64,000 nucleotides of DNA from Alphaproteobacteria bacterium (GTDB lineage: Bacteria; Pseudomonadota; Alphaproteobacteria; UBA828), in contig CAXXVO010000014.1 in NCBI GenBank assembly GCA_963422645.2, forward strand, positions 288,001 to 352,000, written 5' to 3'. Below, piece by piece: positions 15,280 through 49,847 of the stretch. Both the position numbers and the translations under genes were made by a program. How positions within the stretch are numbered: position 1 is the first letter of the stretch; each line of letters opens with the position of its first letter. The notes beneath the pieces are model-generated. The model worked only from the letters and a program-made list of their open reading frames with translations, was not told the DNA's origin and made no database searches.

Positions 15280-16017
15280 ATGGCGGACGAGCGGAGAACG
15301 CTGATTCTCACCGGCGCGAGCCAGGGGATCGGTCACGCGACGGTCAAGCGCTTCAGCGCGGCCGGCTGGCGGGTCATCACAGCCTCGCGCCGGGCCTTCT
15401 CGGAGGATTGCCCGTGGGAGGCCGGACCCGAGGACCACATCCGGATCGACCTCTCTGACCCGGAGGACGTGCGTCACGGCATCGAGGAGATGCGCGCCCG
15501 CCTCAATGGCGCACCGCTGAGCGCGCTCGTCAACAACGCGGGCATCTCGCCCAAGGGCGGGGACGGCATACGGCTGGACAGCCAGAACACCGATCTCGAC
15601 GTCTGGCGCGAAGTCTTCCAGGTCAACTTTTTCGCGCCGCTGGCGCTGGCGCGCGGTCTCTTCGAGGAGCTGAAGCAAGGCCAGGGCAGCGTCGTCAACG
15701 TGACATCGATCGCGGGCGGCCGGGTCCACCGCTTCGCGGGCAGCGCTTATGCGACCTCGAAGGCGGCGCTGGCGTCGCTCACCCGCGAGATGGCGGCTGA
15801 TTTCGGCCCGCTCGGGATCCGCGTCAACGCCATCGCGCCGGGGGAGATCGACACGCCCATCCTCTCGCCCCAGGCCAACGACCTGCTGCCGGCCATTCCG
15901 ATGGCACGCCTCGGCAAGCCCTCCGAGGTGGCGTCGGCGATCTACTTCCTCTGCTCGGATACCGCCGCCTACATCACCGGCGGCGAGCTGCACGTTAACG
16001 GCGGCCAGCACGTGTAG
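15280..16017 (+). CDS. SDR family oxidoreductase
   Basis: TGASQGIG, NNAG, YATSK. Confidence 0.92.
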   Translation: MADERRTLILTGASQGIGHATVKRFSAAGWRVITASRRAFSEDCPWEAGPEDHIRIDLSDPEDVRHGIEEMRARLNGAPLSALVNNAGISPKGGDGIRLDSQNTDLDVWREVFQVNFFAPLALARGLFEELKQGQGSVVNVTSIAGGRVHRFAGSAYATSKAALASLTREMAADFGPLGIRVNAIAPGEIDTPILSPQANDLLPAIPMARLGKPSEVASAIYFLCSDTAAYITGGELHVNGGQHV

Positions 16018-16021
16018 CGGT

Positions 16022-16056
16022 CAAAAAGAACTGCGGCGCCTCGAAAGGCGCCGCAG
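16022..16056 (-). terminator. rho-independent terminator between convergent genes
   Basis: Perfect 11-bp stem CTGCGGCGCCT-CGAA-AGGCGCCGCAG followed by TTCTTTTT on the minus strand. Confidence 0.8.
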
Positions 16057-16719
16057 CAATCGTGACAGCTTTGTCTACGCGGTCTGGAACTCGTTCCAGC
16101 GTTTCACGACGAGGATGTTCTCGTCCATGATCGAGTTCCACACGGCGACCCGGCCCATGCGGTTCGCGAACGAGCCGCCGTCGCGGACGTGGCCGGGCTG
16201 CTCCATGACGTTGCCGAAGGGATCCTTGACCTCGCCTTCCGCCGGCTTGCCCTCGTACCAGTAATCCCACTCCCAGGGCTCCATGAACCCGCGCGAGTTC
16301 TCGGGCGTGCACATGTAGTAGCCCTGCTTGGAGAAGTAGGCGCCCGCCGGGCCCGAGTGGTACCAGTTGAAGTAGTCGTAGAGGGCGCCGAGCTTCTTGC
16401 CCTCGACGTGGCGCGGGATCATCGCGCCGAGCGCCCAGGCCCGGTAGCCTTCCTTGAGGTCGAGGTAGATGCAGGGCACGCCGCGTGCGCGCACCGCCGC
16501 CACCGCCGGCGACCACATGGACTGCAGCACCACCTCGCCAGAGGTCATCAGATTGACGGAATCGTTGAAGGTGCTCCAGAAGGCGCGGAAGTGCCCGTCC
16601 TTCTTGTAACTGCCCAGGTCGTCTGATTTGTCATTTTGGGCCAGTGGATTGAGGCGTTTCTCGTTCGGAGTTGGTGGAAAGGGCTTGACGGGAATTTCGG
16701 GAAATGACTCAACAACGAC

Positions 16720-18227
16720 ATGAGCAATCCCGAGTCGCCGCGCGGCCCTTCGACGGGAGCAGCGCCCGAAACGCCCGCGCAGAAGATCGCCCGCCTGGAG
16801 GAGGAGAACGCCCGGCTTCGGGAGGAAAATGCCTGGCTTCGGCAGCAGAACGCGCGGCTGGAAGAGCAAGTCGCGCGTCTCGTCGAGCGCATCGAGGAGT
16901 TGGAGCGCCGTCTCGGCCTCAACAGCGGCAACAGCGGCAAGCCGCCTTCGAGCGATGGGCTGAGGAAGCCGAATTCGAAGCGGCGAACCCGAAGCCTGCG
17001 CGGCAAATCGGGCCGCAAGCCCGGTGGCCAGCCCGGCCACAAGGGCAAGACGCTGCGCCGCGCCGATCACCCGGATCGGGTGAAGGATCACGTCCCGGCT
17101 TCCTGCAAGGGATGCGGTTCGCCGCTTTCGGACGCGGCCAGGGCGGGAACGCCCGTCGCCCGCCAGGTGTTCGATCTGCCCGAGCCGAGCCCCCTGGAGG
17201 TGACCGAGCACCGGGCGCATGCCAAGTGCTGCGGGCATTGCGGGACGGTGACCCGGGCGGCGTTCCCCGACGGGGTGTCGGCGCCGGTGCAGTACGGCCC
17301 GCGCATTGCCGGGGTGGCGGTCTACCTTCAGCACGCTCACTTCCTGCCGGAGGATCGGCTGTCGCAGGTGATGGCCGAGCTCTTCGGCGCGCCGGTGACG
17401 GCTGCGACGTTGGCGACGATGAGCGAGAGGGCGGCCGAGCGGCTGTGCGGGACGCGGCCTTGCACATACAGGACCTGGCGGCGGGCACGGCGCGGGTGAA
17501 ACACATGGACGAGACCGGCTTGCGGATCGGCGGTCAGACGCAGTGGCTTCATGTGATCTGCACGCCGCTGCTGGCGGCGTACCGGGTCAGCGGCAAGCGC
17601 GGCGCCCTGCTCTCGGGTGTCTCCGGCATCGTCGTGCACGATCACTGGAAGCCGTACTTCGCGATGGAAGGGGTGGAGCACGGCCTGTGCAACGCCCATC
17701 ACCTGCGGGAGTTGCAGGCGCTGGTGGACATCGAAGGGGAGGCTTGGGCCCGGCGGATGCAGCAGCTCCTGCGCCGAGCCAATCGCGCCGCCCGCATCGC
17801 GCTGGACAAGGATATCGCCGTTCCGGCGAGGCTTGTGGCGCTGATCGAGCGCCGATACGACGAGATCATCGCCGATGCGCTGGCCTTTCACGAGAGCCAA
17901 CCACCGTTCTCGCCTGGCAAGAGGAAGAAGCGCCGGAAGCGAAGGATCGGTCACAATCCGGCCTTGAGGCTGCGCGACCACAAATGCGCGGTGCTCCGGT
18001 TCCTGATCGACCTCGAGGTCGGGTTCACGAACAACGAGGCCGAGCGCGACCTTCGGATGATGAAGCTGCGCCAGAAGATCTCCGGGGGCTTCCGGTCCGC
18101 GCAGGGGGCCGAGAACTTCGCCATCCTGCGCAGCGTCATCACCACCGCCAGAAAGCAGGGCTGGAATATCATCGAAGCCCTGACCAGCCCATCGGATCGG
18201 CTCATCGCCACCGTCAAGTGCGCGTAA
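16720..18227 (+). pseudogene. IS66 transposase with a +2 frameshift near 17445
   Basis: Leucine zipper, NSGKPPSSDG, zinc finger, HMDETG, CNAHHLREL, TNNEAERDLR; the copy at 52472-53200 shows the intact reading. Confidence 0.88.
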
Positions 18228-18269
18228 GCTCACCTGGCACGGGTTCTCCAACAGCGGAGCCATTCTCAT

Positions 18270-18479
18270 AAACGATCATGGTCGACGCCGTGCTGGACCA
18301 CCCCATAGAATGAAAATCGGTGCCCGTCGCGCGGGCGGACTTCGGGCCACATCGGGGTAGCTTACCGGTCGCAGTCCGCAAGAGGGGCATCGTGAGCTGT
18401 GAAACCCGGCGACCCCAGAGGAGCACACGGGCGTCGCGTGGGTAGCGTTGTGCCGAATCCCAGAGAATTTTCACAGCAA
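18270..18479 (+). mobile_element. non-autonomous mini-IS110 (ends only)
   Basis: 18270-18315 matches the IS110 left end 29052-29097 at 35/46 ungapped; 18340-18367 matches 30694-30721 at 23/28; ends TTTCACAGCAA vs TTTCACGGCAA. Confidence 0.75.
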
Positions 18480-19516
18480 GAACCTGGGCAGTTACTCCTT
18501 CTTGAGCTGGATCAGCCGGTCGAAGGTGTAGTTGATCTCGTCGACCGTCATGTTGCCCTTGTCGCTGTACTCGAGCTCGCCGTTGGCCTCGAGCGCCATG
18601 GCGATATCCATGATGCCGATGCCCGGGAAGTTCTGCAGCGCCGTCCTGCCGCTGAACTCGGGGTTGACGAACTCGGCCCAGGTCTCGATCGGGCGGCCGA
18701 TCTTTTCCGGCTGCGCGCCGAGGGTATCGGCGTTGAAGGTACCGGGCACGATGGTCATCCATTGGCTGGACTCCGGCTCGACGAAGTCCCTGCCTTCGAT
18801 GGCTGAGGTCCAGCAGTAGCGAGACGGGTTCATGCCGTCCCCGTACCAGGCGTCGGCATGGATCTTGCCGCTCTTCTTGAAGATCCCGAGCAGCTGGTCG
18901 AAATGCTCCAGCCTCGTGACGTCGATCGCCTGCATGTTCCCGCTCGGGAAGATCTGCGGGAACTGCTCGAGATCCGGCTCGAAGAGGTCGGCCGATCTCG
19001 GCTGAGTGATGGCGCGCTGGCCGATGGTGTTGAGGTCTACCGCCGACATGTTGAACTGGAAGCCGAGCGCCTCTTCGGCCATCGCCTCGTAGGCGCTGGA
19101 GATCGTCACCGCCGTGCCGATCATGTTGATCTCGATGTCCTGGATGTCCTGCGACCAGACGGTCGGGAATCCGCCGATGCTCGCGCCGGCCGCCACGCCG
19201 GCAACCGCTGCCGAGCCCTTGAGCACGGACCGCCTGGAAATTCCTGTCTTCTTGAGATCCGCCATGAGCTTGCTCCTCCCCATTGTTGCGTTCTTGTCGC
19301 ACCGCAAGCGACGCGATCGGGAAGGAGCCGACGAGCAGGGCGCCCGTCGGCGCCGCCCGTCGCGTCGGAGCAGCACCTCTCCACGCCTAAGTGACTCGCC
19401 CGGAAGTATGCGGCGCTGCGCCAGGTGGCGCAAGCGCGGCACGGGGCCACCCGGCGGCTGTCGATCCCCGAGCCGGAGCGTCAACCGCGCCCGACCCTCA
19501 AGCCGGGATCACTCGC

Positions 19517-19819
19517 TCAGCCAGCGTGCGAGTCGAGCGTGGGGATCCCGGAGACATCGACCGTGCGCTCCGCGAGCGCGAGATCGCGGGCTCTCTGCAG
19601 ATTGAGCCAGAAAGCCGCGCCATTGCCGAACAGCTTGCCAAAGCGAACCGCCATCTCGGCCGTGACAGGCTGCTTCTCGCTGATGATGTCGTAGAGCGTC
19701 TGCCGGGAAATCCCGAGAGCGCCGGCAACGGCCGTCTTGGTCATGCCGAGCGCCGGCAGGACATCCTCCCGGAGAATTTCCCCCGGATGTGCGGGGATCA
19801 GGGACGGGTGTCTCTTCAT
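19517..19819 (-). CDS. higA: HigA family antitoxin
   Basis: HPGEILRED...VTAEMAVRFGKLFGNGAAFWLNLQ. Confidence 0.92.
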   Translation of the reverse strand: MKRHPSLIPAHPGEILREDVLPALGMTKTAVAGALGISRQTLYDIISEKQPVTAEMAVRFGKLFGNGAAFWLNLQRARDLALAERTVDVSGIPTLDSHAG

Positions 19820-20097
19820 CAGTGATAGTCCTCAATGTCTACGGTGATGGCACCATCGTCGTCCCACCCGAACGTTACGCGGACATTAGCCGTCAGGCGG
19901 ACGGAATAGCGGCCGGCACGATTACCGCTCAGTGAATGGAAATGCGATCCGGGATAGTTCATGTCCTCTGGTCTGTCGGAGGCATCGAGCGCTGAAAGGA
20001 TTCGGTGCAACTTCCCGATCCACTGGGCGTTCAGGCCCTTCGTCTGCCCCTTGGTCCAGTACTGTCGCAGCGCCTTGTGTCGAATGCTGCCGATCAC
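19819..20097 (-). CDS. higB: HigB/RelE-like toxin
   Basis: VIGSIRHKALRQYW...HSLSGNRAGRYSVRLTANVRVTF...DYH; TGATG overlap with higA. Confidence 0.9.
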   Translation of the reverse strand: MIGSIRHKALRQYWTKGQTKGLNAQWIGKLHRILSALDASDRPEDMNYPGSHFHSLSGNRAGRYSVRLTANVRVTFGWDDDGAITVDIEDYH

Positions 20098-20266
20098 CAC
20101 TGCAGCGTGATTGAGCCGGGCGTTATTGTCAAGTGTCGCCTTACAGATCTCGTCGCTCTGGATGCGACACTGCCGCAATCCGCTCGGCTGCAACGGTCAC
20201 TTGAGAGGCAGACCCGGCAGAATGCCCACAAGCTGCGACCGTGCGCTCGAACGCTCAGCGGAAGCG

Positions 20267-20306
20267 TGGCACGCCCGGCAGGACTCGAAGCTGCAACCCC
20301 AGGCTT
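20267..20306 (-). other. degenerate tRNA 3' fragment (Arg-like), probable att scar
   Basis: AAGCCTGGGGTTGCAGCTTCGAGTCCTGCCGGGCGTGCCA: T-arm, acceptor strand and CCA with no 5' half. Confidence 0.6.
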
Positions 20307-20365
20307 GGCCGAAAATCCGTCCGTGCACTAAGATTCGAACCGGACCGGTCCCCGGGCTCGCGCCA

Positions 20366-21445
20366 ATGACTTCACCGGACAGCGTCGTACTGATCGAACG
20401 GACTCCCCTCCTCGACCGCATTCAGGAAAATCTTGGGCGGCGTCTGACACTGATCGACGCACCGGCCGGGTATGGCAAGACGACCCTTCTGAATCAGCTG
20501 CGCGCCAGGTTGAGCCGCTGCGGCATTACCCGGGCCTGGGTTCAGATTGGACGCCGCGATCGCGATCCGACCTCGTTGGTCGCGCTCCTGGAGCAGGCAG
20601 CGCGGGCCGACCTGGGAATTCACGCGACCGTATCGGGCGATCTGGACCCGCTTGTGCGCCTCTCGATGCTGACATCGATCATGGCTGAAAGCGGTGAGGA
20701 GGCATGCCTGATCATCGACGATGCGCATTTCGCTCATAACGACGCATGCCTTGAGCTCTTCGAATACCTCATCCACAACAGCCCGCGCACCATTCATATT
20801 GTCATTGCGACCAGAGAGCGGTCGGGAATTCCGGTCTCAGGCCTGAGATTGCAGGGTGAAGTTCACGAGATCACCGTCAACGACCTCAGATTCGACGAGG
20901 GGGACATCGGAGCACTGTTCGATCAGCCGCTGGACGAGCAGGTTTCGAGGCAGCTGATCGAGCGGACCGAGGGGTGGCCGGTCGCGGTTCAACTAACGCA
21001 GCTGACCCACGATTGCAGCGTGCCGCTGGCGCGCGATGTCAACGGCTTGTCCGGATCGCGGGCCGAGCTGGCCGATTATCTGAATGAACGCGTGTTCAAA
21101 CAGCTTCCGGAAGACCTGCAGAAATTTTTGCTCGAAACGGCGCACCTGGAGCGTTTGAACGGCGATCTTGCGGATGCCGTTCGCGCGCGAAGCGACGGAT
21201 GGGCGAGACTGCTCGAGATTTGGACGGCCGGAGTCCTGCTGTCCAGGAGCGACGCTCCCGAGGACGGGTGGTTCAAGCATCATCAGCTGTTCCTGGAATT
21301 CCTGCGGCAACAGCAAGTTTATCTCGGCAGAGAGCTCGTCGATACATTGCATCGACGCGCCGCCGATTGGTTCTTCGATACCAATGACCTTCAGTCCGCA
21401 ATACACCACGCCAAGGCGGGAAACGATTACGCGCGGGCGATAGGG
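20366..21445 (+). pseudogene. MalT/LuxR-type ATP-dependent regulator truncated by IS
   Basis: APAGYGKTT Walker A, LIIDDAH, RTEGWP; cut at 21446; start uncertain. Confidence 0.85.
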
Positions 21446-22684
21446 TCAGACTTCCTGACCTCTGCTGATTTTAGGTGACACGAGCCGCGCGGATTCCGAG
21501 GCCCCGTCGATGTCGTAGACTATGCGCAGACGGGTGCCGGGGAAGACCGTTTCGGTGGCGTTCAGGTCGCTCAGAACCGCATCGATCCAACGGTCGCAGG
21601 CGTCGTTTGCGAGGCCAAGAATGTGGACCCGCAGGAGGCCATTGCCAGGATCCGGCAGGATGTCGGCATCGGCGGTGAGCAGCGCTTGAAGCAGTTTCCG
21701 GGGATGGGGCTTGTGGCCCTGCGCCTGCATGACGGGAAGCATCATGCGGGTTTCGGCGCGGTAGGCGATCATCCGGATGACGTCGAGGAGGAGGCGCTCG
21801 CGCGCGGGCAAGGCATCGAGCTGCTCGGCTTCGTCGAGGTCGCCGGCCCGGCAGTGCTTGGGCGTCTCCCTGCGGCTGGCCCTGACGATGTCGCGGACAT
21901 CCTGGAGGTCCCTGACTTCCCTCCTGAGTTCCGCCGTCGGCTGCTTCTTCCGGGCCGTGTCGGCGATGCGGTTGCGCAGGCGGCCAAGCTGGCGGTCGAG
22001 GCGATGGATTGCCTTGTCATAGGCCCGCCGCAGCGGGTTGACGACCATGGCGGCGGGATCGAGAGGCTCGAGCTCGTGGGTCGGCAGGGCGTCGAGATTG
22101 AACTCGTCACGCATGTACTTGAAGAAGTTCTCCTGCGACCAGCGCGAGAACATGGCGCCCGCAACCTCAGCCATCGGCTTGTGCGGATCGGTGGTGATCA
22201 GCGGCACCTGACGGCCGTTGTCGAGCAGGCGGCGGATCTGGCGCACCCTGAAGCCGTTCGGCAACGTCACCGGCTTCTCAGCCAGCCGCATGGTGGCGCT
22301 GCCGTCCGCCGCCGGTCCGTGAATGGGAACGGTCATCGCGCCGAAGTCCTCGGCCGGCCAGTCCTCGCCCCTGAAGTTCTTGTGCCAGGTCAGGCAGGCG
22401 ACGCCGCGCCTCGCCAGCCGGCGGAACAGATCCGGGCTCCAGCCCTCGCGGTCGAAGACCAGGGTGAGCGCCGGCTGGCCGGGATGCTCGGCGGTCAGGT
22501 CCGGCGCCCCGGCGCCAACGATCCCAAGCTCCTGCAGCGCCGGCACCACGTCGGCTTCGATGGCCGCGACCATCTTCGGGTCCAGCGGCTTGTGCAGACA
22601 GAGCAGCGGCTTGCCGCCCAGAGCGTTGATCCAGTAGCTGGCGCTCGCCGGCAGGCACAGCTTCTCGCGCGAGACGAAGTGCTT
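21446..22684 (-). mobile_element. 3' half of the unclassified IS (786-aa transposase), truncated by IS66-A
   Basis: Matches the 3' half of 49956..52471 including the IR. Confidence 0.92.
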
Positions 22685-23975
22685 GTAACTGCCCAGGTCG
22701 TCTGATTTGTCATTTTGGGCCAGTGGATTGAGGCGTTTCTCGTTCGGAGTTGGTGGAAAGGGCTTGACGGGAATTTCGGGAAATGACTCAACAACGACAT
22801 GAGCAATCCCGAGTCGCCGCGCGGCCCTTCGACGGGAGCAGCGCCCGAAACGCCCGCGCAGAAGATCGCCCGCCTGGAGGAGGAGAACGCCCGGCTTCGG
22901 GAGGAAAATGCCTGGCTTCGGCAGCAGAACGCGCGGCTGGAAGAGCAAGTCGCGCGTCTCGTCGAGCGCATCGAGGAGTTGGAGCGCCGTCTCGGCCTCA
23001 ACAGCGGCAACAGCGGCAAGCCGCCTTCGAGCGATGGGCTGAGGAAGCCGAATTCGAAGCGGCGAACCCGAAGCCTGCGCGGCAAATCGGGCCGCAAGCC
23101 CGGTGGCCAGCCCGGCCACAAGGGCAAGACGCTGCGCCGCGCCGATCACCCGGATCGGGTGAAGGATCACGTCCCGGCTTCCTGCAAGGGATGCGGTTCG
23201 CCGCTTTCGGACGCGGCCAGGGCGGGAACGCCCGTCGCCCGCCAGGTGTTCGATCTGCCCGAGCCGAGCCCCCTGGAGGTGACCGAGCACCGGGCGCATG
23301 CCAAGTGCTGCGGGCATTGCGGGACGGTGACCCGGGCGGCGTTCCCCGACGGGGTGTCGGCGCCGGTGCAGTACGGCCCGCGCATTGCCGGGGTGGCGGT
23401 CTACCTTCAGCACGCTCACTTCCTGCCGGAGGATCGGCTGTCGCAGGTGATGGCCGAGCTCTTCGGCGCGCCGGTGACGGCTGCGACGTTGGCGACGATG
23501 AGCGAGAGGGCGGCCGAGCGGCTTGCGGGACGCGGCCTTGCACATACAGGACCTGGCGGCGGGCACGGCGCGGGTGAAACACATGGACGAGACCGGCTTG
23601 CGGATCGGCGGTCAGACGCAGTGGCTTCATGTGATCTGCACGCCGCTGCTGGCGGCGTACCGGGTCAGCGGCAAGCGCGGCGCCCTGCTCTCGGGTGTCT
23701 CCGGCATCGTCGTGCACGATCACTGGAAGCCGTACTTCGCGATGGAAGGGGTGGAGCACGGCCTGTGCAACGCCCATCACCTGCGGGAGTTGCAGGCGCT
23801 GGTGGACATCGAAGGGGAGGCTTGGGCCCGGCGGATGCAGCAGCTCCTGCGCCGAGCCAATCGCGCCGCCCGCATCGCGCTGGACAAGGATATCGCCGTT
23901 CCGGCGAGGCTTGTGGCGCTGATCGAGCGCCGATACGACGAGATCATCGCCGATGCGCTGGCCTTTCACGAGAGC
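22685..23975 (+). mobile_element. IS66-A copy 2, truncated by IS21
   Basis: Left IR at 22685; matches copy 1 apart from an indel near 23522. Confidence 0.92.
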
Positions 23976-24177
23976 TGTCAATCGGCTTTCAATACTGACC
24001 CCCGATCGGCGTGCAAAATTGACCCCCCTGAGTGGCACGGCGGAGGTTGTCCCGGTAGCCAATAGGGGGGACCCGCGCGGCTTCGTGTGGCGCCCTGCGC
24101 TACGCGGAGCGAAGCCGCGTGGGGGGTCCCTGTTGGCCCACCGGGGCAACCGGGCCGCAAGGGAGGCCGGCGGCGGG

Positions 24178-24906
24178 TCAGGAGCGGTTCTTGAAGCGCC
24201 AGCTCTCGTTGCCGGTCTCGATGATCTCGCAATGATGGGTGAGGCGATCGAGCAGCGCTGTGGTCATCTTGGGGTCGCCGAAGACGGATGGCCATTCGCC
24301 GAAGGCGAGGTTTGTGGTGATGACGATCGAGGTGCGCTCGTAGAGCCGGCTCATCAGATGGAAGAGCAGCTGCCCACCGGCCTGGGCGAAGGGCAGGTAG
24401 CCGAGCTCGTCGAGGATGACGAAGTCGCGGCGGACGAGCTGGTCTGCAGTGCGGCCCTGGCGTCCGGCGCGAAGCTCGGCCTCGAGGAGGTTGACCAGGT
24501 CGACGACGTTGTAGCACCGGCCGCGCGCGCCCTTGCGGATGCAGGACCGCGCGATGGCGACGGCGAGATGGGTCTTGCCGGTACCGGTGCCGCCGACCAG
24601 CACGATGTTGCGTTTGCCCTCGAGGAAGCCGCCGCCGGCGAGCTCCTGGATCAGGGGCTCGTTGACCGGCGAGGCGGCGAAGTCGAAGTCGGCCAGCTCC
24701 TTGACCGTCGGCAGCTTGGCGGAGGCCATCTGGTACTTGATCGAGCGGGCCCTCTTGTCGGCGATCTCGACCTGCAGCAGCGTACCGATGATCTGTTGCA
24801 CCGGATGGCGGCGCTTGAGCCCGTCGGCAAGGATGTCGTCGTAAGCGGCGCGCATACCTGCGAGCTTCAGCTGGGTCATCATCTCCAGCACATCATGACG
24901 CTCCAT
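24178..24906 (-). CDS. istB: IS21 helper ATPase IstB
   Basis: GGTGTGKTH Walker [19 protein letters not shown]. Confidence 0.95.
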
Positions 24907-26407
24907 GACCGGCCTCCCTCAGGCTGTCGTAGCGCTGACAGTCGGCTACCGGCTTGTGGCGAAGCTGCAGGCCCTCGGGCGTCGGGATGATTGCCGGCGG
25001 TGCCGGCTGGCGCTGCCGGGCGAGGATGTTGAGCACCACGTCGGCGCTGCAGGCACCGCAGTCGAGCGTCTCGGCACAGGCCGCCTCAACCGCCTCCAGT
25101 CCGTCCTCCAGCACCGCCGCGAGCACCTTGACGAACTGCCGGTCGCCGTCGTCGTGGCCCGCGAGCCGGGTTCGCAGGCGGCCGAGCGCGTTGGGCAACT
25201 GCCAGTCCTTGAAGGGCGCGCCATTGCGTAGCGCGCCGGGCTTCCGCGTCAGGATCGGCACGTAATGCCACGGATCGTAGACGAACCGGCCGCGCCCGAA
25301 GCTGCGGGGGTGCTCGGCAACGGTCTCGCCGTCCTGGCGGATGACGATCCGATCGGCATAGGCCCGCACGTCCACCGGCCGGCCGACGGCGCGGGCCGCG
25401 ACGCTGTACTGGTTGTTGTCGAAGCGCACCAGACAGGTCTTCGAGACCGACACCTCGCTGGCATGGAAGCCGTCGAAGGGGCCGCGATACGCCATCAGGA
25501 AGGGCTGCTCCTCCTCGAACACCTGCCACACCGTCTTGCCCGGGATTGTCGGATGCGGATGCTTCTTGGCGTCCTCGATGCACCGATCCATCAGCCACTC
25601 GTTGATCTCGGCGTAGGAGCGGCCCCGCGGGATGGGCACGAACAGGCGGCCGCGAAGGTCACCCACCTGCTTCTCGACCTGCCCCTTCTCCCAGCCAGCC
25701 CCTGGCGTGCACGCCACAGGCTCCACCAGATGGTGCGAGCACAGCTCCTGGAAGCGGCGGTTGTAGTCCCGCTTCTTGCCCACGAAGATCGTGCTCACCG
25801 CCGTCTTCATGTTGTCGTAGATGCCCCGCCGGCAGACCCCGCCGAAGAAGCGGAAGGCACGCTCGTGCGCCTCGAAGACCATCTCCTGGCTCTCGCGGGG
25901 AAAGATCTGGACCAGATACATCCGGCTGTGGCACAGCCGCATGTGCGCCGCCTTCACCCTGGTCGTCGCGCCCGACAGACGCGCGTACTCGTGGCTCCAG
26001 TCGAACTGGTAGGCCTCGCCGGGATCGAAGATCAGCGGCACATAGGCCTGCGCCGGCGACAACAGCCGCCACCGGCGCCGCCAGGCCCTGGCATAGCGGC
26101 GAACCGCGTCATAGCCGCCCTTGTAGCCCAGCGACACAAGGTCTTCATGAATCCGCAGAAGAGACAGCCGATCCTTGCGTGCCTTCTTCTCGTTGGCCTT
26201 CAGCTGGCGCTCAAGCTCCTCCACCCACAGCCCAAGCTTCGGCATCGGCTGGATCTTGCGCTCGTAGCTGTGCGAGGTCGCATCGCCCCGCACCACCTTG
26301 CGTATCGTGTTCTTGGAAACCCTCAAATCCCGGGCGAGCTTCTTGATCGGAACGCCCTTCACCAGATGATCCCGACGGATCTTCGCGATCGTTTCCACAA
26401 CCAGCAT
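24893..26407 (-). CDS. istA: IS21 transposase IstA
   Basis: N-terminal [22 protein letters not shown]. Confidence 0.95.
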
Positions 26408-26526
26408 CTCCCCCACCACCCCGTCCGTCCAAACGACGAGGTGTGTTCATGGACACAAATCCAAGGGGGTCAATTTTGGACGCCGATCACCCCCAATAGG
26501 GGGTCACTTTTCCACGCTTAACAACA

Positions 26527-26731
26527 ATCAGGCCACCATCGAAGGCGGCACTCACCTTCTTGCGTTGGACGCTTGGCAGATCGAAGGGGAGAAGGCTATC
26601 GTCGGTCATGGCGGGCGTGGCGTTTTCGTTGTTCGGAGAGGAAGACGCTCGGACAACGAATTCCTACCCGATGGCAACGGCTTACGCTACGTCCGCCACC
26701 CCAAAATCAGACACGCCGTGAATAATTGGGG
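26527..26731 (-). mobile_element. left end and 5' transposase fragment of an IS1380 family element, truncated by IS21
   Basis: End CCCCAATTATTCAC; ATG at 26609 gives MTDDSLLPFDLPSVQRKKVSAAFDGGLI, typical of IS1380 N-termini. Confidence 0.75.
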
Positions 26732-26861
26732 CTAGCGCTTTGCACCCTGAGGGCAGGACCCTGATGCCGAAGCCCTTGAGGTCCCGGTCGCGGATGTCGT
26801 AGGCGGACTTGCGGGGCTTGAGGGCGTCGACGCGGCGGTCGTTGAGGCGAAGCGTCGCCAT
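26732..26861 (-). pseudogene. tyrosine integrase N-terminal arm-binding fragment
   Basis: MATLRLNDRRVDALKPRKSAYDIRDRDLKGFGIRVLPSG; AGGAGG RBS; interrupted by IS1380. Confidence 0.8.
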
Positions 26862-26997
26862 TGGTATTCCTCCTGGGCTGCGAGTTGCTGCCGGGGCGAA
26901 AACGGGGAGCGGTTTCGCCGTCCCCGGCCGAATCAGGAGGAAATAAACAAAGCTATTTCAGTGTCTTAGCACCGAAGGTGCGCTTCGGGGTGTACTC

Positions 26998-27041
26998 TTT
27001 CCTCTCCACGGGGGAGGAGAGAGCCGGGGTGAGGAGGGGGC
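26998..27041. repeat. REP-like extragenic palindrome
   Basis: CCTCTCCACGGGGGAGGAGAGAGCCGGGGTGAGGAGGGGG resembles the CCCTCTCCC..GGGAGAGG..GGGGTGAGGG intergenic repeats common in Proteobacteria. Confidence 0.4.
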
Positions 27042-27045
27042 AGCC

Positions 27046-27834
27046 CTACCAGCTGTTTCGGAGCTCGCGGAGCTTGAGGAAGACCTCGCGCGGGCCGGGG
27101 GTGTCCGAGAGATCGGGGAAGGCCTCGCGCAGGCGCGCGATCACCGTGGGGTTGTGGAGACGGAAGAAGGTGTTGATCTCCTTCTCCAGCGCGAGCGTCG
27201 AGACCATGGCGTCGTCGGGGTCCTGCGGCCCGACATCCTCAAGTAGGGACGCCGCCCGCTCGTTGTCGGGCTCCCGGTCCAGGGTGAAGCCCAGGTTGTG
27301 CGCAATATAGTCGTGGCCCGGATAGATCAGGGTCTTGTCCGGCAGCTTCGCGAGCTGGCCGGCGAAGGTCTCGAAGAGCTCCGCCGGATGACCGCCGGAA
27401 TGGCAGTTGCCCGCGCCGGCATTGAAGAGGGTATCGCCGCAGAAGAGGGCGGGTGTGTCGGTGCGCGAGAGCAGGCAGACGTGGCTCATGGTGTGCCCGG
27501 GGGTGTCCAAAGCCTCGAGCTCCATGGCGCCCACCTTGATCACGTCGCCCGCACCGAGCCCGCGGTCGATGCCGGGGATCTTGCCCTTGGCGTTGGCGTG
27601 GGCGAGCAGGCTGGCGCCGGTGGCCTTGATCATCGCCTGGTTGCCGCCCGTGTGATCGCCGTGCTCGTGGGTGTTTAGTATCTGGGTGATCTGCCAGCCC
27701 TTGCCCTTGGCCGCCTTGAGGCAGCGGCGGTGATCGAGCGGGTCGACCGCGAGCGCCTCGCCGGTCTCCGGACAGGCGATCAGGTAGTTGAAGTTGCGAT
27801 AGTCGTTGGCGGTCCAGATCTGCTCGACGAGCAT
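27046..27834 (-). CDS. gloB: hydroxyacylglutathione hydrolase (glyoxalase II)
   Basis: THEHGDH, TPGHT, GDTLF, YPGHDY metallo-beta-lactamase motifs. Confidence 0.88.
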   Translation of the reverse strand: MLVEQIWTANDYRNFNYLIACPETGEALAVDPLDHRRCLKAAKGKGWQITQILNTHEHGDHTGGNQAMIKATGASLLAHANAKGKIPGIDRGLGAGDVIKVGAMELEALDTPGHTMSHVCLLSRTDTPALFCGDTLFNAGAGNCHSGGHPAELFETFAGQLAKLPDKTLIYPGHDYIAHNLGFTLDREPDNERAASLLEDVGPQDPDDAMVSTLALEKEINTFFRLHNPTVIARLREAFPDLSDTPGPREVFLKLRELRNSW

Positions 27835-27858
27835 GCGCGCTCTCCCGGTTCGGCGGCG

Positions 27859-28422
27859 TCAGTCGGGGTCCAGTTCGGAATCCCAGTAGAGGTAGTCGCC
27901 CCAGCTTTCGTGCAGGTAGCGGGGCGGGAAGCGCCGTCCCGCCTCGTGCAGGTCGTAGGCGCTGGGCGGCTTGGGCTTGCGCGCCGGTCGCATGCCGCAC
28001 TCCCGCGGCAGCCGGTTGCTCTTCGCGAGGTTACAGGCGCTGCAGGCGGCGACGACGTTGTCCCAGGTGGTGCGCCCACCGCGCGAGCGCGGCACCAGGT
28101 GGTCGAAGGTGAGGTCCTCCACCGGAAAGGGCGTCACGCAATACTGGCAGGAGAACGAATCGCGCAGGAAGACGTTGAACCGCGTGAAGGCGGGCCGGCG
28201 CGCGAGCGGGCGGTAGCGCTTGAGCGCGACCACGCTCGGCAGCCGGATCGCCGTGCTGGGCGAGCGGATCGCCCGGTCGTATTCCGAGAGGATGGTCACC
28301 CGGTCGAGGAACGCCGCCTTGATCGCATCCTGCCAGCCCCAGACCGAGAGCGGGAAGTAGCTGAGCGGCCGGTAGTCGGCGTTGAGCACGAGGGCTGGGC
28401 AGCTCTCCAAGGATGCTTGCAC
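27859..28422 (-). CDS. HNH endonuclease
   Basis: LVLNADYRPL, CQYC, TFDHLVPRSRGG, CSACN. Confidence 0.9.
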   Translation of the reverse strand: MQASLESCPALVLNADYRPLSYFPLSVWGWQDAIKAAFLDRVTILSEYDRAIRSPSTAIRLPSVVALKRYRPLARRPAFTRFNVFLRDSFSCQYCVTPFPVEDLTFDHLVPRSRGGRTTWDNVVAACSACNLAKSNRLPRECGMRPARKPKPPSAYDLHEAGRRFPPRYLHESWGDYLYWDSELDPD

Positions 28423-29161
28423 GGTTCCAGGCCCCCTCAACGCGGCTCCGGTGCGCCCACCAGCGGCCTAATCTCCGACGGCGCGCCAGATTTGCGGGCG
28501 CATCATGCCAAAGTGCGGGCGCAGCGCAAACCCGCAGCGGAGCAAAGGGGCAGGGCGTGATGCGACCCGTGGCGCCTGTCGGTGCCTATTCGACCACGAA
28601 TGTCGGCGAGAAGTCGGCGGGCGCGAGCGAAAGGCGCGTGTTGAACGAGTCGAGATTGGCTTGCTCCACGACGTGGATCAAAGGCCCGGCGTGCGGGTGC
28701 TCGAGCTTGCCTTCGAGAAACCGAACCGCCATCTCGATACCCATCCGGCCTTGCAGGGCGGGGAAATCGGTGGGCGCCGCGAGGATCTTGTCGCGCTTGA
28801 TGCCGCGATACACCGCATGCGTGAAGTAGTCCGCCAACACCCGGATCTGCCCGGTGAGGCCGCGCGCCCTGAGCAGGCTCACCGCGGCGCCCGCGGTGAC
28901 CGCGCTGCCCACGATGTAGTCGACATCGGGGCGTTCCTCCAGCGCCTCCTCGACTAGGATCAGCTGGATTTCGCGGCCGGTGTCGCCCCACTTCTTCACG
29001 ACGATGTCGACGGCGCTGCCCGCGAGCGCCTCGGTGAATCCCTCCTCGACAAAACAGTCATGGTCCCCGCGGTTCTGAGCCACCCCGTGGCATGAAACAG
29101 GAGCGGTTCGGCTGACGTTTTCCTTGCGCTTGCACCCATTTGCCGTGTCAGGATGGGTATT

Positions 29162-29344
29162 GGCGGAGGTGGGGACGTGTGAGCGTCGTTATATCGGTGA
29201 CGTAGTTCCCGATGACAAAACTGCTTCCGGCGGCCGGCTCCGCACCCCGTATTGTACCCGGCCCGTGGCCGTGGACGCGCGGCAAATTGCACCGCACCCG
29301 CTCGTCGGATGCGTGTTCTTCCGACCGCTGTCCCCGCCTCCACC
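29162..29344 (+). ncRNA. candidate IS110 bridge RNA
   Basis: Closed by stem 29162-29176/29330-29344; contains GATGACAAA/TATT (target-like) and GCGCGGCAA/TGTT (donor-like) segments, each pair separated by a hairpin. Confidence 0.7.
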
Positions 29345-29406
29345 GTGGCGATGCCACGGCGTGATCGTACGCCGCCGTGGCGAGAGCGCAAATGAGGAGG
29401 AAGGCG

Positions 29407-30657
29407 ATGAAGACGGAAGGCTTGCACGTCGTCCGGCCGCGCGCGGCGGGTCTGGACGTGCACAAGATGGAGATCACCGCGACGGTTCGCCTCTGTGAGG
29501 GCGAGGGTGAGCCGGTGGTGGAGACGCGCTGCTTCGGCACGCTGCCGAGCGGTCTGGAGGAGATGGTCGCGTGGCTGACCGGTCACGGCGTCGAGGCTGC
29601 GGTGATGGAAGGGACCGGGGTCTACTGGCAGGCGCCCTTCGCGGCCCTGGAGGCGGCCGGGCTCGAGGCGATCCTGGTGCATGCGCGTCAGGTGAAGCAG
29701 TTGAAGGGGCGCAAGACCGACGTGGCGGACAGCGTGTGGCTGGCCTGCGTGTGCCAGTTCGGGCTCTGCACGCCTTCCCACGTTCCGCCTGAGCCGTTCC
29801 GGGAGCTGCGCGCACTGAGCCGCCAGCGCCGCGTCCTGGTCAGGCAGCGCTCCGCCGTGCGCAACCGCGTGCAGAAGATCATCGACCGCGCCGGTGCGCG
29901 CATCGGCGGCATCCTCTCCGACGTCTTCGGCGTCAACGGCCGGAAGATCCTCGACGGCCTGGCGCAGGGGACGGCGCGCGAGGTCATCCTCGCCTCGCTC
30001 ACCAGCCACGTTGCGAACAAGCTGGAGGGGCTCGGCGAGGCGCTCACCCTGAGCCTGGGCGACAACGACCGCTTCATGCTCAACGACCTGCTGGAGGAGC
30101 ATGACGCGCTTGAGGCGCGCATCGCGTCCTACACCAGGAAGATCGACGGGCAGATGACACCGTGGGAGGAGCAGCTCCGTCTGCTGACCACCATCCCCGG
30201 CATCGACCGCACCGCCGCCTCGACCATCCTCATCGAGATCGGCCCCGACATCGGCGTGTTCGCCTCCAAGGAGCACTTCGCCGCCTGGGCCGGGCTCTGC
30301 CCCGGCAACAACGAGAGCGGGGGCAAGCGCCGCAACGCACGCACCCGCATGGGCTCCAAGACCCTGCGCGCCTGCCTCGTCGAGTGTGCCCACGGCGCGG
30401 CCCGAACCAAGGGGTGCCAGTTCGAGGCTCATCACCGCGCCCTCGCCGCCCGGCGCGGCTACAAGCGCGCCATCGTCGCCGGCGCTCACAAGATGCTGCG
30501 CATCATCTATGTGGTGCTCAAGACCGGCAGGCCCTACTACGACCGCACGGCCGACTACGACGCTCTGATGGTCAAGCGCAACGCTCCTCGGTGGATCCGC
30601 ATGCTCCGCCGCTACGGCTACATCGAGCCCGTAGGCGCGGAACTCAAGGCCGCCTGA
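29407..30657 (+). CDS. IS110 DEDD recombinase/transposase
   Basis: GLDVHK, MEGTG, KTDVAD (DEDD) and GLCPGNNESGGK serine motif; GAGGAGG RBS. Confidence 0.95.
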   Translation: MKTEGLHVVRPRAAGLDVHKMEITATVRLCEGEGEPVVETRCFGTLPSGLEEMVAWLTGHGVEAAVMEGTGVYWQAPFAALEAAGLEAILVHARQVKQLKGRKTDVADSVWLACVCQFGLCTPSHVPPEPFRELRALSRQRRVLVRQRSAVRNRVQKIIDRAGARIGGILSDVFGVNGRKILDGLAQGTAREVILASLTSHVANKLEGLGEALTLSLGDNDRFMLNDLLEEHDALEARIASYTRKIDGQMTPWEEQLRLLTTIPGIDRTAASTILIEIGPDIGVFASKEHFAAWAGLCPGNNESGGKRRNARTRMGSKTLRACLVECAHGAARTKGCQFEAHHRALAARRGYKRAIVAGAHKMLRIIYVVLKTGRPYYDRTADYDALMVKRNAPRWIRMLRRYGYIEPVGAELKAA

Positions 30658-31510
30658 GCGGCCCGCATCTCGTCAGCCGGCTACGCGGGACCGCTTCGGA
30701 CCACATCGGGGAAGTCCACCGCTCGTCTCCGCCGCGCCGACCCTGGCGGTCTCAGCCAACGCCGTGACCTCGGGGTTGGAGCGTCACCGCGCGTCCCTCG
30801 CCAGAATCTGTTTCACGGCAAGTAGGCCCACTGCGACTCCCGCGGGCCGGGGAACCACGCCACCTTGACCGGCGGCGTGCCGGCCGGATGGAGGTTGGCA
30901 AGGTAGGCTCCGGTCACTTCTCCCATCGTGACCCAGGAGACGGCGGCCTTGGCGCTGATGCCGGGGTCGGCGATGTCGTTGACCACGGCGAGCACCGGAA
31001 TCTTCTCGCTGATCGCGAGCACCGCCTCGGTCAGCCCGTCGAAGCTCACCGCGCCCAGCGCCAGGATGTCCGCGTCCTGGGCGCATTCGGTGATCTGGGC
31101 AATTTGGCGTTCGAGGTTGGGGTAGCCGCCCGCCTCGACCACGCGGAGCGCGACGCCGAGCCGCTTCGCCTCCTCGACCATGCCGTAGTTGACGCTCAGC
31201 CAGTACGAATCCTTGAGGTGAGGATAGGAGGCGCAGATGCGCCATTTCTGCGACGCCCGCTCGAGGGGGCGATAGGTGATGGTCGTCGTCGGGCTGCGGA
31301 AATCGAAGGGCGGCGACCAGACTTCGAGCGCCCACTCCGAGGGGGACGCAGTAGTCTCAACCGCTTGCTGGTCAGACCCGAGCGTCGGGCCTGCGGCCAG
31401 CACCAGGCTCGCGAGGAGACCAGGAATCAGTCTTGATAGGCGCCAAAGTCTCATGGCCGGCATGATGCGGCCGATTGCCTTTTGAATCCAACCGGTGTTC
31501 TAATTTCACG

Positions 31511-48077: not shown

Positions 48078-49847
48078 TTGCCGTGAAACAGATTCTGGCG
48101 AGGGACGCGCGGTGACGCTCCAACCCCGAGGTCACGGCGTTGGCTGAGACCGCCAGGGTCGGCGCGGCGGAGACGAGCGGTGGACTTCCCCGATGTGGTC
48201 CGAAGCGGTCCCGCGTAGCCGGCTGACGAGATGCGGGCCGCTCAGGCGGCCTTGAGTTCCGCGCCTACGGGCTCGATGTAGCCGTAGCGGCGGAGCATGC
48301 GGATCCACCGAGGAGCGTTGCGCTTGACCATCAGAGCGTCGTAGTCGGCCGTGCGGTCGTAGTAGGGCCTGCCGGTCTTGAGCACCACATAGATGATGCG
48401 CAGCATCTTGTGAGCGCCGGCGACGATGGCGCGCTTGTAGCCGCGCCGGGCGGCGAGGGCGCGGTGATGAGCCTCGAACTGGCACCCCTTGGTTCGGGCC
48501 GCGCCGTGGGCACACTCGACGAGGCAGGCGCGCAGGGTCTTGGAGCCCATGCGGGTGCGTGCGTTGCGGCGCTTGCCCCCGCTCTCGTTGTTGCCGGGGC
48601 AGAGCCCGGCCCAGGCGGCGAAGTGCTCCTTGGAGGCGAACACGCCGATGTCGGGGCCGATCTCGATGAGGATGGTCGAGGCGGCGGTGCGGTCGATGCC
48701 GGGGATGGTGGTCAGCAGACGGAGCTGCTCCTCCCACGGTGTCATCTGCCCGTCGATCTTCCTGGTGTAGGACGCGATGCGCGCCTCAAGCGCGTCATGC
48801 TCCTCCAGCAGGTCGTTGAGCATGAAGCGGTCGTTGTCGCCCAGGCTCAGGGTGAGCGCCTCGCCGAGCCCCTCCAGCTTGTTCGCAACGTGGCTGGTGA
48901 GCGAGGCGAGGATGACCTCGCGCGCCGTCCCCTGCGCCAGGCCGTCGAGGATCTTCCGGCCGTTGACGCCGAAGACGTCGGAGAGGATGCCGCCGATGCG
49001 CGCACCGGCGCGGTCGATGATCTTCTGCACGCGGTTGCGCACGGCGGAGCGCTGCCTGACCAGGACGCGGCGCTGGCGGCTCAGTGCGCGCAGCTCCCGG
49101 AACGGCTCAGGCGGAACGTGGGAAGGCGTGCAGAGCCCGAACTGGCACACGCAGGCCAGCCACACGCTGTCCGCCACGTCGGTCTTGCGCCCCTTCAACT
49201 GCTTCACCTGACGCGCATGCACCAGGATCGCCTCGAGCCCGGCCGCCTCCAGGGCCGCGAAGGGCGCCTGCCAGTAGACCCCGGTCCCTTCCATCACCGC
49301 AGCCTCGACGCCGTGACCGGTCAGCCACGCGACCATCTCCTCCAGACCGCTCGGCAGCGTGCCGAAGCAGCGCGTCTCCACCACCGGCTCACCCTCGCCC
49401 TCACAGAGGCGAACCGTCGCGGTGATCTCCATCTTGTGCACGTCCAGACCCGCCGCGCGCGGCCGGACGACGTGCAAGCCTTCCGTCTTCATCGCCTTCC
49501 TCCTCATTTGCGCTCTCGCCACGGCGGCGTACGATCACGCCGTGGCATCGCCACGGTGGAGGCGGGGACAGCGGTCGGAAGAACACGCATCCGACGAGCG
49601 GGTGCGGTGCAATTTGCCGCGCGTCCACGGCCACGGGCCGGGTACAATACGGGGTGCGGAGCCGGCCGCCGGAAGCAGTTTTGTCATCGGGAACTACGTC
49701 ACCGATATAACGACGCTCACACGTCCCCACCTCCGCCAATACCCATCCTGACACGGCAAATGGGTGCAAGCGCAAGGAAAACGTCAGCCGAACCGCTCCT
49801 GTTTCATGCCACGGGGTGGCTCAGAACCGCGGGGACCATGACTGTTT
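48078..49847 (-). mobile_element. IS110 family element, copy 2
   Basis: Reverse complement of copy 1; the empty target CATGCACTTTGTTCATACGG is visible at 53521-53540. Confidence 0.95.
48242..49492 (-). CDS. IS110 DEDD recombinase/transposase
   Basis: Identical protein to 29407..30657. Confidence 0.95.
   Translation of the reverse strand: MKTEGLHVVRPRAAGLDVHKMEITATVRLCEGEGEPVVETRCFGTLPSGLEEMVAWLTGHGVEAAVMEGTGVYWQAPFAALEAAGLEAILVHARQVKQLKGRKTDVADSVWLACVCQFGLCTPSHVPPEPFRELRALSRQRRVLVRQRSAVRNRVQKIIDRAGARIGGILSDVFGVNGRKILDGLAQGTAREVILASLTSHVANKLEGLGEALTLSLGDNDRFMLNDLLEEHDALEARIASYTRKIDGQMTPWEEQLRLLTTIPGIDRTAASTILIEIGPDIGVFASKEHFAAWAGLCPGNNESGGKRRNARTRMGSKTLRACLVECAHGAARTKGCQFEAHHRALAARRGYKRAIVAGAHKMLRIIYVVLKTGRPYYDRTADYDALMVKRNAPRWIRMLRRYGYIEPVGAELKAA

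Follow-up and report, generated by a model that had tools for sequence, protein, structure and literature searches.

The nearest described counterpart of the element reported here is MITEPpu9, the ssr9 module of ISPpu9, a member of the IS110 family in Pseudomonas putida KT2440 (PMC12288879). As set out in the available portion of that paper, MITEPpu9 lacks a recombinase and lies between copies of the end sequences of ISPpu9, an A box of 43 bp with an inverted repeat inside it and a B box of 16 bp; it is present beside ISPpu9 as well as alone and inserts into REP sequences, recombining at a duplicated dinucleotide and giving minicircles that depend on the transposase. Tandem IS110 modules and in-situ deletion derivatives have also been described (10.64898/2026.08.14.744561), and no mobile recombinase-less miniature was found described in the accessible portion of that source. 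MITEPpu9 was the one direct precedent that a full-text literature search returned from the accessible texts, and supplementary tables may list similar elements. The family of miniatures described here, 202-213 bp in length and termed mini-IS110s or minis, is a second and structurally simpler MITE-like case for IS110 elements, from another lineage, and the nesting of one such mini in an IS66 element is a new circumstance.

The DNA under study is a stretch of 64,000 nucleotides, hereafter the window, from the alphaproteobacterial genome G000. In Table 1, we summarized the features of the mini, of the IS66-family element (IS66-A) whose non-coding tail it occupies, and of a resident autonomous IS110-family element, the termini of which were fixed from its 47 full copies in G000. 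When 18228-18500 was compared with the IS110 region 29030-30850 by BLASTN and sequence reading, three collinear matches were found. The first begins exactly at the IS110's left terminus (18270-18315 against 29052-29097, 35/46 identical, E 4e-6), which reproduces the figure given in an initial annotation of this DNA. The second lies just past the recombinase stop codon (18330-18371 against 30684-30725, 32/42, E 3e-5) and encloses a shorter block of 23/28 noticed earlier, so that the resemblance to IS110 ends is significant on both sides. The third is formed by the last 11 bases of the mini, which equal the exact right terminus of the IS110 save for one G>A. Both termini of the mini are homologous to those of the autonomous element in the same order and orientation, the right end of about 150 bp is homologous to the greater part of the 162 bp that form the non-coding right end of the IS110, and a duplicated core dinucleotide flanks the whole.

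What the mini lacks had also been stated correctly at the outset, namely the recombinase and the candidate bridge RNA: no recombinase ORF lies within 18270-18479, and the structured region of about 183 nt in the IS110 left end (29162-29344) has no counterpart in the mini. An Rfam scan of 16000-31500 at E<=1 gave no match in either the mini or the IS110 left end. Owing to the A-run at its boundary, the mini starts at 18272 or 18273, a one-base ambiguity, and ends at 18477; AA or an A-run flanks both sides of all family copies, and the exact crossover is ambiguous within it. The mini can be classed neither as an autonomous IS110-family insertion sequence, there being no ORF where the resident IS110 has both recombinase domains, nor as a classical MITE, as terminal inverted repeats are absent, the only repeat being a subterminal one of 7-10 bp, and the flanking duplication is a 2-bp core and not that of a staggered cut.

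Table 1. Features of the mini-IS110, its IS66-A vehicle and the resident IS110 element (window positions)
Feature	Position	Strand	Basis or remark
IS66-A, single-ORF IS66-family element	16606..18495	+	Sequence reading; 65 full copies in G000; Pfam
IS66-A transposase gene	16720..18227	+	Frameshift near 17440-17500 in the window copy
Left AA core (crossover dinucleotide, present in duplicate)	18270..18271 (or 18271-18272)	+	A-runs
Mini-IS110 of about 206 bp, lacking an ORF and a bridge-RNA region	18272..18477	+	End-to-end alignment with G011 and G041 minis
Left-end-derived part, about 48 bp, deletion breakpoint directly after it	18272..18319	+	35/46 match to 29052-29097
Left-end hairpin, arms TGGTC / GACCA	18279..18300	+	Alifold, 5 pairs
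Subterminal inverted repeat, left arm TGAAAAT, pairs with 18467-18473	18311..18317	+	Alifold
Conserved block shared with the IS110 right end, including CTTCGG motif	18330..18371	+	32/42 match to 30684-30725
Right terminus, holds the right arm of the subterminal repeat	18467..18477	+	One G>A against every other family member
Right AA core	18478..18479	+	Sequence
IS66-A right terminal repeat	18480..18495	+	Intact, outside the mini; IS66 ends of relatives colinear
Resident autonomous IS110-family element	29054..30819	+	AA cores 29052-29053 and 30820-30821; 47 full copies in G000
Left-end candidate bridge RNA of the IS110	29162..29344	+	Four-sequence alifold
GACAAAAC, putative left target guide	29214..29221	+	Changes together with the flank left of the insertion in three elements
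CGGCAAA, putative left donor guide	29280..29286	+	Identical in three autonomous elements
IS110 recombinase gene, 416 aa	29407..30657	+	Pfam DEDD_Tnp_IS110 and Transposase_20

The vehicle, IS66-A, belongs to the IS66 family by its DDE_Tnp_IS66 domain, its terminal inverted repeats (14 bp common to both in the window copy) and its 8-bp target duplication, which for the window copy is TCCTTCTT at 16598-16605 and 18496-18503, where the element interrupts a minus-strand gene. Pfam places DUF6444, zf-IS66 and DDE_Tnp_IS66 in its transposase; in the window copy these are split over two frames, an exception in that 62 of the 65 full copies in G000 have a longest ORF of 513-521 aa. Those 65 copies have 61 distinct right flanks. 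The transposase stop codon is separated by 252 bp from the 16-bp terminal repeat, and the mini sits in this region, 16 bp inside the right terminus, leaving the terminal repeat intact.

Homologues of IS66-A were sought among 40 relatives and were found at 85-94% identity in four congeneric genomes (G011, G014, G005 and G004). All ten related IS66 loci inspected, that is six homologues and four more distant ends, lack the mini; in these ends the region after the stop codon runs straight into the terminal repeat, and about 207 bp are missing exactly there. A still closer empty site is given by a 421-nt contig of the public run X2, which differs from the window in 2 of 69 bases (97% identical), leaves the reference at 18272 and goes on with the A-run and then the IS66 terminal repeat; the depth of this empty form in X2 is 6.4, against 18 for the mini-bearing form. 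The check for empty sites that had been proposed for this locus thus came out in its favour, with the unoccupied form found outside G000, where 65 of 65 full IS66-A copies carry the mini and none is empty. The companion claim, that removing the mini would restore an IS66 end beside its terminal repeat, is upheld in substance and needs correction in detail: against the X2 allele, the occupied site equals the element 18273-18477 plus the AA core plus one substitution at 18480, so the closest empty-site allele is not matched exactly, and the departure from the congeneric homologues is larger. On these alignments, the mini is best read as an insertion into an ancestor of IS66-A, for which the related IS66 ends represent the empty sites. 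That it is instead a native IS66 tail resembling IS110 ends by chance or convergence could draw on its constant presence in the IS66-A copies of G000, and is given a vanishingly small probability in view of its absence from ten of ten related IS66 ends, its presence outside IS66 in other genomes, and matches of the above E values that fall at the exact IS110 termini.

Within G000, the 210-bp query (18270-18479) gave 114 BLAST matches, 110 of them inside IS66-A and 88 full-length; the other four are partial (positions 42-210) and are attached to another IS66 type. Among the 65 full IS66-A copies, the mini is identical to that of the window in 38, differs by one substitution in 24 and is of another variant in three. 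None of the 114 matches is free of IS66 context in this 23-contig assembly, which resolves tandem IS110 arrays, just as the initial annotation had said that the mini is now carried by IS66. Because no free copy occurs among the 114, the mini is present in each of the 65 full IS66-A copies and perfect 8-bp duplications bound 48 of them, the multiplication of the mini in G000, to about 90 copies, is due to IS66 transposition and not to bridge recombination.

The insertion-sequence load of G000 is extreme, with 65 copies of IS66-A, about 60 of another IS66 type (63 matches), about 25 of IS66-C, 47 of IS110 and a further element that gives 258 BLAST matches, and nesting of insertion sequences is frequent. 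IS66-C is a second IS66 type, about 67% identical to IS66-A, and four of its copies have directly after them mini positions 42-210 and then another IS66 terminal repeat (C9:509566-511432, C19:44737-46602, C15:4194-6060 and C11:31912-33778); at least two of the four have the same outer flank and they are therefore in part segmental duplicates. In four or five IS66-A copies (C5:328972/331485, C16:128771/136320, C8:517864/518888, C16:45276 and C18:76639), the mini is broken at its positions 90-94 by a different insertion sequence, whose terminal repeat is CAGACTTCCTGACCTC and which is flanked by a duplication of 5 bp, AGCTT. This is probably a single event spread by IS66-A, and the same joint is also present in contigs of the public run X3. 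In X3 contigs, IS66 terminal repeats also abut both sides of 18465-18472, inside the mini right end, which indicates an IS66 insertion with an 8-bp duplication at that point in the organism of the run.

Whether the minis of G000 can still move by themselves is a separate matter, on which their ends are informative. The right end reads CACGGC in the IS110 and in eight of nine aligned minis, and CACAGC in the G000 mini alone, while the left end of the G000 mini differs from that of the resident IS110 at positions 3-4. Given these end differences, and since no copy is found outside IS66 despite 48 intact recombinase genes, we think that the mini is at present rather probably an inert passenger in G000. 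The opposite reading, in which the 47 resident IS110 copies continue to mobilise the G000 minis as active donors, and free copies are rare or unassembled, can point to the abundance of intact recombinase genes (48 matches at 100% identity), and to the right-end G>A, which under the IS621 guide convention would form a G:T wobble with the putative donor segment. We hold it to be improbable, as against it stand the left-end differences, the lack of any match outside IS66 context in an assembly that resolves tandem IS110 arrays, and the lack of skip or go-back joints in the contigs of public runs. The initial annotation had taken the differences at both ends as wobbles; this may hold for the right end, provided that this convention applies, and fails for the left end, where the fourth base would give an A:C mismatch. 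Contigs of three public runs showed no circle junction, skip or go-back joint, excision or new insertion, and contigs cannot show rare events.

Copies elsewhere, for which the initial annotation had asked, were found in two other genomes. In G011, four minis of the same architecture, a left end of 48 bp joined to a right end, lie outside IS66, each with different flanks. One of them is 87% identical to the window copy by BLAST (85% over the alignment described below) and is inserted, without an IS66 body, in unrelated sequence, a full IS110 being 900 bp away; the other three form a second subfamily at three sites and are 60-65% identical over that alignment, or 72-80% by BLAST over the matched stretches. 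G041 is far richer, with 24 mini matches, and in 17 of them 193 or more of the 202 bases are covered, at 91-100% identity; the G041 mini is 81% identical to the window copy by either measure. Fifteen of the G041 minis were inspected, and their flanks differ and none has an IS66-A body. Several intact-end copies at unrelated sites are therefore a property of the family (four in G011, 17 in G041) and not of G000. The term MITE-like parasite, used in the initial annotation, is justified for the family by G041, while the G000 copy itself looks immobile.

A scan of one genome per species, in which left-end and right-end blocks were required within 15-45 bp of each other, returned 15 stretches, apparently two G011 loci and 13 in G041. 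The same two-block pattern was found in no metagenome contig, and the 18-nt core of the 42-bp block was found in G000 only among 401 genomes of the class; both were exact-pattern searches, which would miss diverged members. The family as found is narrow, being known from three genomes.

We aligned nine minis from these three genomes (alignment A1: G000, G011 and G041). They are 58-99% identical to one another and have the same breakpoint, with the left end running to about position 48 and the right end following. Because the nine share architecture and breakpoint, the internal deletion is, on this alignment, best placed as one event that preceded the insertions in G000, G011 and G041. This bears directly on the possibility that the G000 mini is a fossil formed in situ, in which a full-length IS110 relative had inserted into the end of IS66-A and then lost its interior in place, never having been mobile as a miniature. 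The absence of G000 copies outside IS66, the absence of circles among contigs, in which rare events would not appear, and the private G>A at the G000 right end all agree with such a fossil. Nine minis in three genomes at unrelated sites with one breakpoint do not, as independent identical deletions are very unlikely, and we consider the fossil reading very unlikely accordingly.

The insertion sites in G041 add to the case for a mobile unit. Six of the 15 inspected minis and the single related IS110 of this genome occupy the same point of a REP-like palindromic repeat with arms CCTCACCCC and CCCCTCTCC, which is a preferred site of both (examples at C1, 14655-14717 and 3670734-3671206). The repeat has 97 pattern matches in G041, sometimes clustered, and 41 unoccupied ones supply further empty sites, 27 with AAA and 14 with AA where the minis insert. 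The only related recombinase gene of G041 is cut short: it matches residues 1-356 of the 416, has an internal TGA and continues into unrelated sequence, which by eye resembles IS66 accessory genes. Non-autonomous copies that outnumber autonomous ones are the usual MITE pattern. Seventeen minis beside one broken master, at sites that fit its guide-like segment, are what mobilisation in trans would predict, and we infer that such mobilisation took place.

The guide-like segments come from an alignment of four left ends, those of the G000 IS110, of a G011 element whose recombinase is 97% identical, of a G011 sibling (68% at the amino acid level) and of the G041 element. The non-coding left end of the IS110 is 353 bp long, and its candidate bridge RNA of about 183 nt is predicted to have a closing stem and internal helices; compensated changes are seen in 12 of its 76 predicted pairs. 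A segment of 8-10 nt within it tracks the left flank of insertion: GACAAAAC in G000 goes with ACA-AA, ATCAAAAAC in the G011 sibling with TCAA-AA, and TACCCAAAC in the G041 element with CCCC-AA. The segment CGGCAAA equals the shared right-end terminus plus the A-run. The GACAAAAC-type segment and CGGCAAA are thus the putative left target and left donor guides of a bridge RNA, an assignment drawn from three element types with strand conventions taken from IS621 work. By-eye candidates for the right target and right donor guides did not track the flanks and were rejected. On the target side, ACA precedes the A-run in 31 of 36 IS110 copies that have no IS110 as left neighbour, although several of these flanks are segmental duplicates and the 36 are not independent events; past the right core, the first base is A or G in most copies, with variable positions beyond it. 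In G041, CCC stands beside the A-run in eight of the 15 inspected minis, as the G041 segment predicts, and a ninth reads CCCCA.

The site of the mini in IS66-A, CTCAT followed by the A-run, fits the guide segment of no autonomous element, the closest being that of the G011 sibling with 7/9 by eye. It had been said earlier that this target differs from a motif RACAAAGTR; the site is indeed unlike the ACA-AA preference of the resident element, while the GTR half of that motif proved weak. Since the site is unlike ACA-AA and the G011 sibling has a different guide segment, it is plausible that a sibling IS110 that has another guide inserted the mini. Among full-length IS110 elements, none was found whose ends come close to those of the mini, the best left-end identity being 76% in every genome. 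The G011 sibling and the G041 element were considered as its parent and set aside, as they share the first 11-12 bases and the layout, and only about 76% over 46 bp. Specific targeting of the IS66 terminal repeat, as by IS4321/IS5075 at Tn21 ends, was considered as well. In G011 the right flank of the 87% mini resembles an IS66 end at 9 of 11 bases, but none of the ten related IS66 ends is occupied and their offsets are not the same, so we treat such targeting as unproven.

Besides single copies, the IS110 of G000 forms head-to-tail arrays of two to five complete copies, in which three or four A's join the right end of one copy to the left end of the next (C11:48121-56945, C16:27185-32471, C10:44770-50057, C8:169710-173228, C8:727936-731455 and C5:476538-480057); the three-A joint is the junction expected of a circle. 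A second full IS110 lies in the window at about 48089-49839 on the minus strand (C15:336089-337839) and, judging by its flanks, inside an IS66-type transposase gene.

Beside the bases at the core, four features are kept by all the minis; they are candidate cis requirements of the donor, which may act as DNA or as RNA. The left-end hairpin is supported in alifold by one pair that switches from T:A to C:G in three of the nine sequences, those of the second subfamily. The subterminal repeat is paired by alifold in the nine sequences between columns 34-43 and 205-215, and its arms co-vary, being of the TGAAAAT type (AAAT/ATTT) in minis, TGAAACAG/CTGTTTCA (ACAG/CTGT) in the IS110 and TGAAAGT/ACTTTCA (AAGT/ACTT) in the G011 sibling. 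The 42-bp block is nearly invariant in all minis, and the fourth feature is a hairpin at alignment columns 148-176 with compensated changes. Since the 42-bp block is also conserved in the IS110 right end, the interior of about 150 bp could be a small-RNA gene or other module held between IS110-type end boxes, as ssr9 is in MITEPpu9, in which case the full IS110 right end would hold the same module. The hairpin at columns 148-176, where four of nine sequences are changed on both sides, the CTTCGG motif, and the precedent of an sRNA gene between A' and B' boxes in the available account of ISPpu9 (PMC12288879) speak for such a module. It is countered by the lack of any Rfam match at E<=1, by the small number of compensated pairs (5/46 on the plus strand and 9/53 on the minus strand, with covariation terms of -0.7 and -1.7 kcal/mol from few and related sequences), and by the fact that DNA-level roles would produce equal conservation. 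The module is compatible with the best explanation given below and would change what is under selection; we regard it as unlikely, with some small weight left to it.

As far as the available portion of its description allows the comparison, the mini resembles MITEPpu9 in being short, recombinase-less and bracketed by the ends of an autonomous element, in its left part of about 48 bp with a hairpin, which recalls the A box, in its conserved right terminus of about 14 bp, which recalls the B box, and in inserting into REP-like repeats in G041. The two differ in core (AG there, AA here) and in IS110 lineage. The interior of the mini is homologous to the autonomous right end, which makes it a plain deletion derivative, whereas MITEPpu9 holds an sRNA gene; the copy number here is higher (17 in G041), and one mini lies within an IS66 that has amplified it. 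Minicircles were found for MITEPpu9, whereas the mini family is described here from sequence.

With the IS621/IS110 bridge-recombinase elements (Durrant 2024; Hiraizumi 2024; Hiraizumi 2026, PMC13626964), the resident IS110 shares the DEDD_Tnp_IS110 and Transposase_20 domains, a structured left-end RNA, a core of two nucleotides and a guide-like segment by which the flank of the target is tracked. The mini differs from them in having neither protein nor RNA, being a donor substrate only. Like classical DDE-derived MITEs, it is small, non-coding and master-dependent, and minis outnumber their master; unlike these, it is without terminal inverted repeats and without a fixed-length duplication from a staggered cut, and its targeting would be RNA-guided. 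IS4321/IS5075, of the IS1111 group, are autonomous, carry inverted repeats that are subterminal and take the terminal repeats of Tn21-family transposons as target. The mini also has a subterminal repeat and was inserted at the end of another transposon, but in its case one insertion event suffices, and ten of ten related IS66 ends are unoccupied.

The explanation that we regard as very likely is that the mini is a non-autonomous internal-deletion derivative of an IS110 element, mobile before it entered IS66 and later amplified by IS66-A. The observation made in the initial annotation is confirmed by this analysis and its interpretation largely supported. An IS110 relative would have lost the recombinase gene and the left-end RNA of about 183 nt, keeping about 48 bp of left end and a right end of about 150 bp, and this miniature would already have been a mobile unit before it reached IS66. 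Resident IS110 elements may supply recombinase and guide RNA in trans to the whole 202-213-bp family, as its members have a common donor junction (CACGGC, A-run, CNNTCATGG) that is matched by the conserved donor segment of the IS110 RNAs. One mini would then have inserted at the A-run 16 bp inside the right terminus of the IS66-A ancestor, sparing the terminal repeat, after which DDE transposition of IS66-A itself would have raised this element to 65 full copies and, with it, the mini to about 88 full-length ones.

Bridge recombinases are under development as programmable genome-writing tools. To our knowledge, the cis needs of natural bridge-recombinase donors are known mainly from a few model elements. 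The mini family is a natural deletion series that gives concrete candidates for donor requirements, namely the parts that selection for mobility would have preserved in a unit that codes for nothing (about 48 bp of left end, the right end, the hairpin and the subterminal repeat), and its insertion sites in G041 track the guide-like segment of the resident element. More tentatively, the minis may form a separate, long-lived lineage that lives as a parasite on several different bridge recombinases across genomes, in which the features kept are the cis requirements and nesting in IS66 is a second-order escape; we find this possible, although doubtful. If so, such a lineage would work through the conserved donor-recognising part of the RNA while the target guide changes, the hairpin, the co-varying subterminal repeat and the 42-bp block would be natural needs of excision or insertion outside the current guide-pairing model, and nesting in IS66 would let a donor without a master be propagated by an unrelated transposase. 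For G000, an unrelated IS66 can multiply a bridge-recombinase donor about 90-fold, and this amplification scatters potential recombination substrates through a genome with 47 intact recombinase genes.
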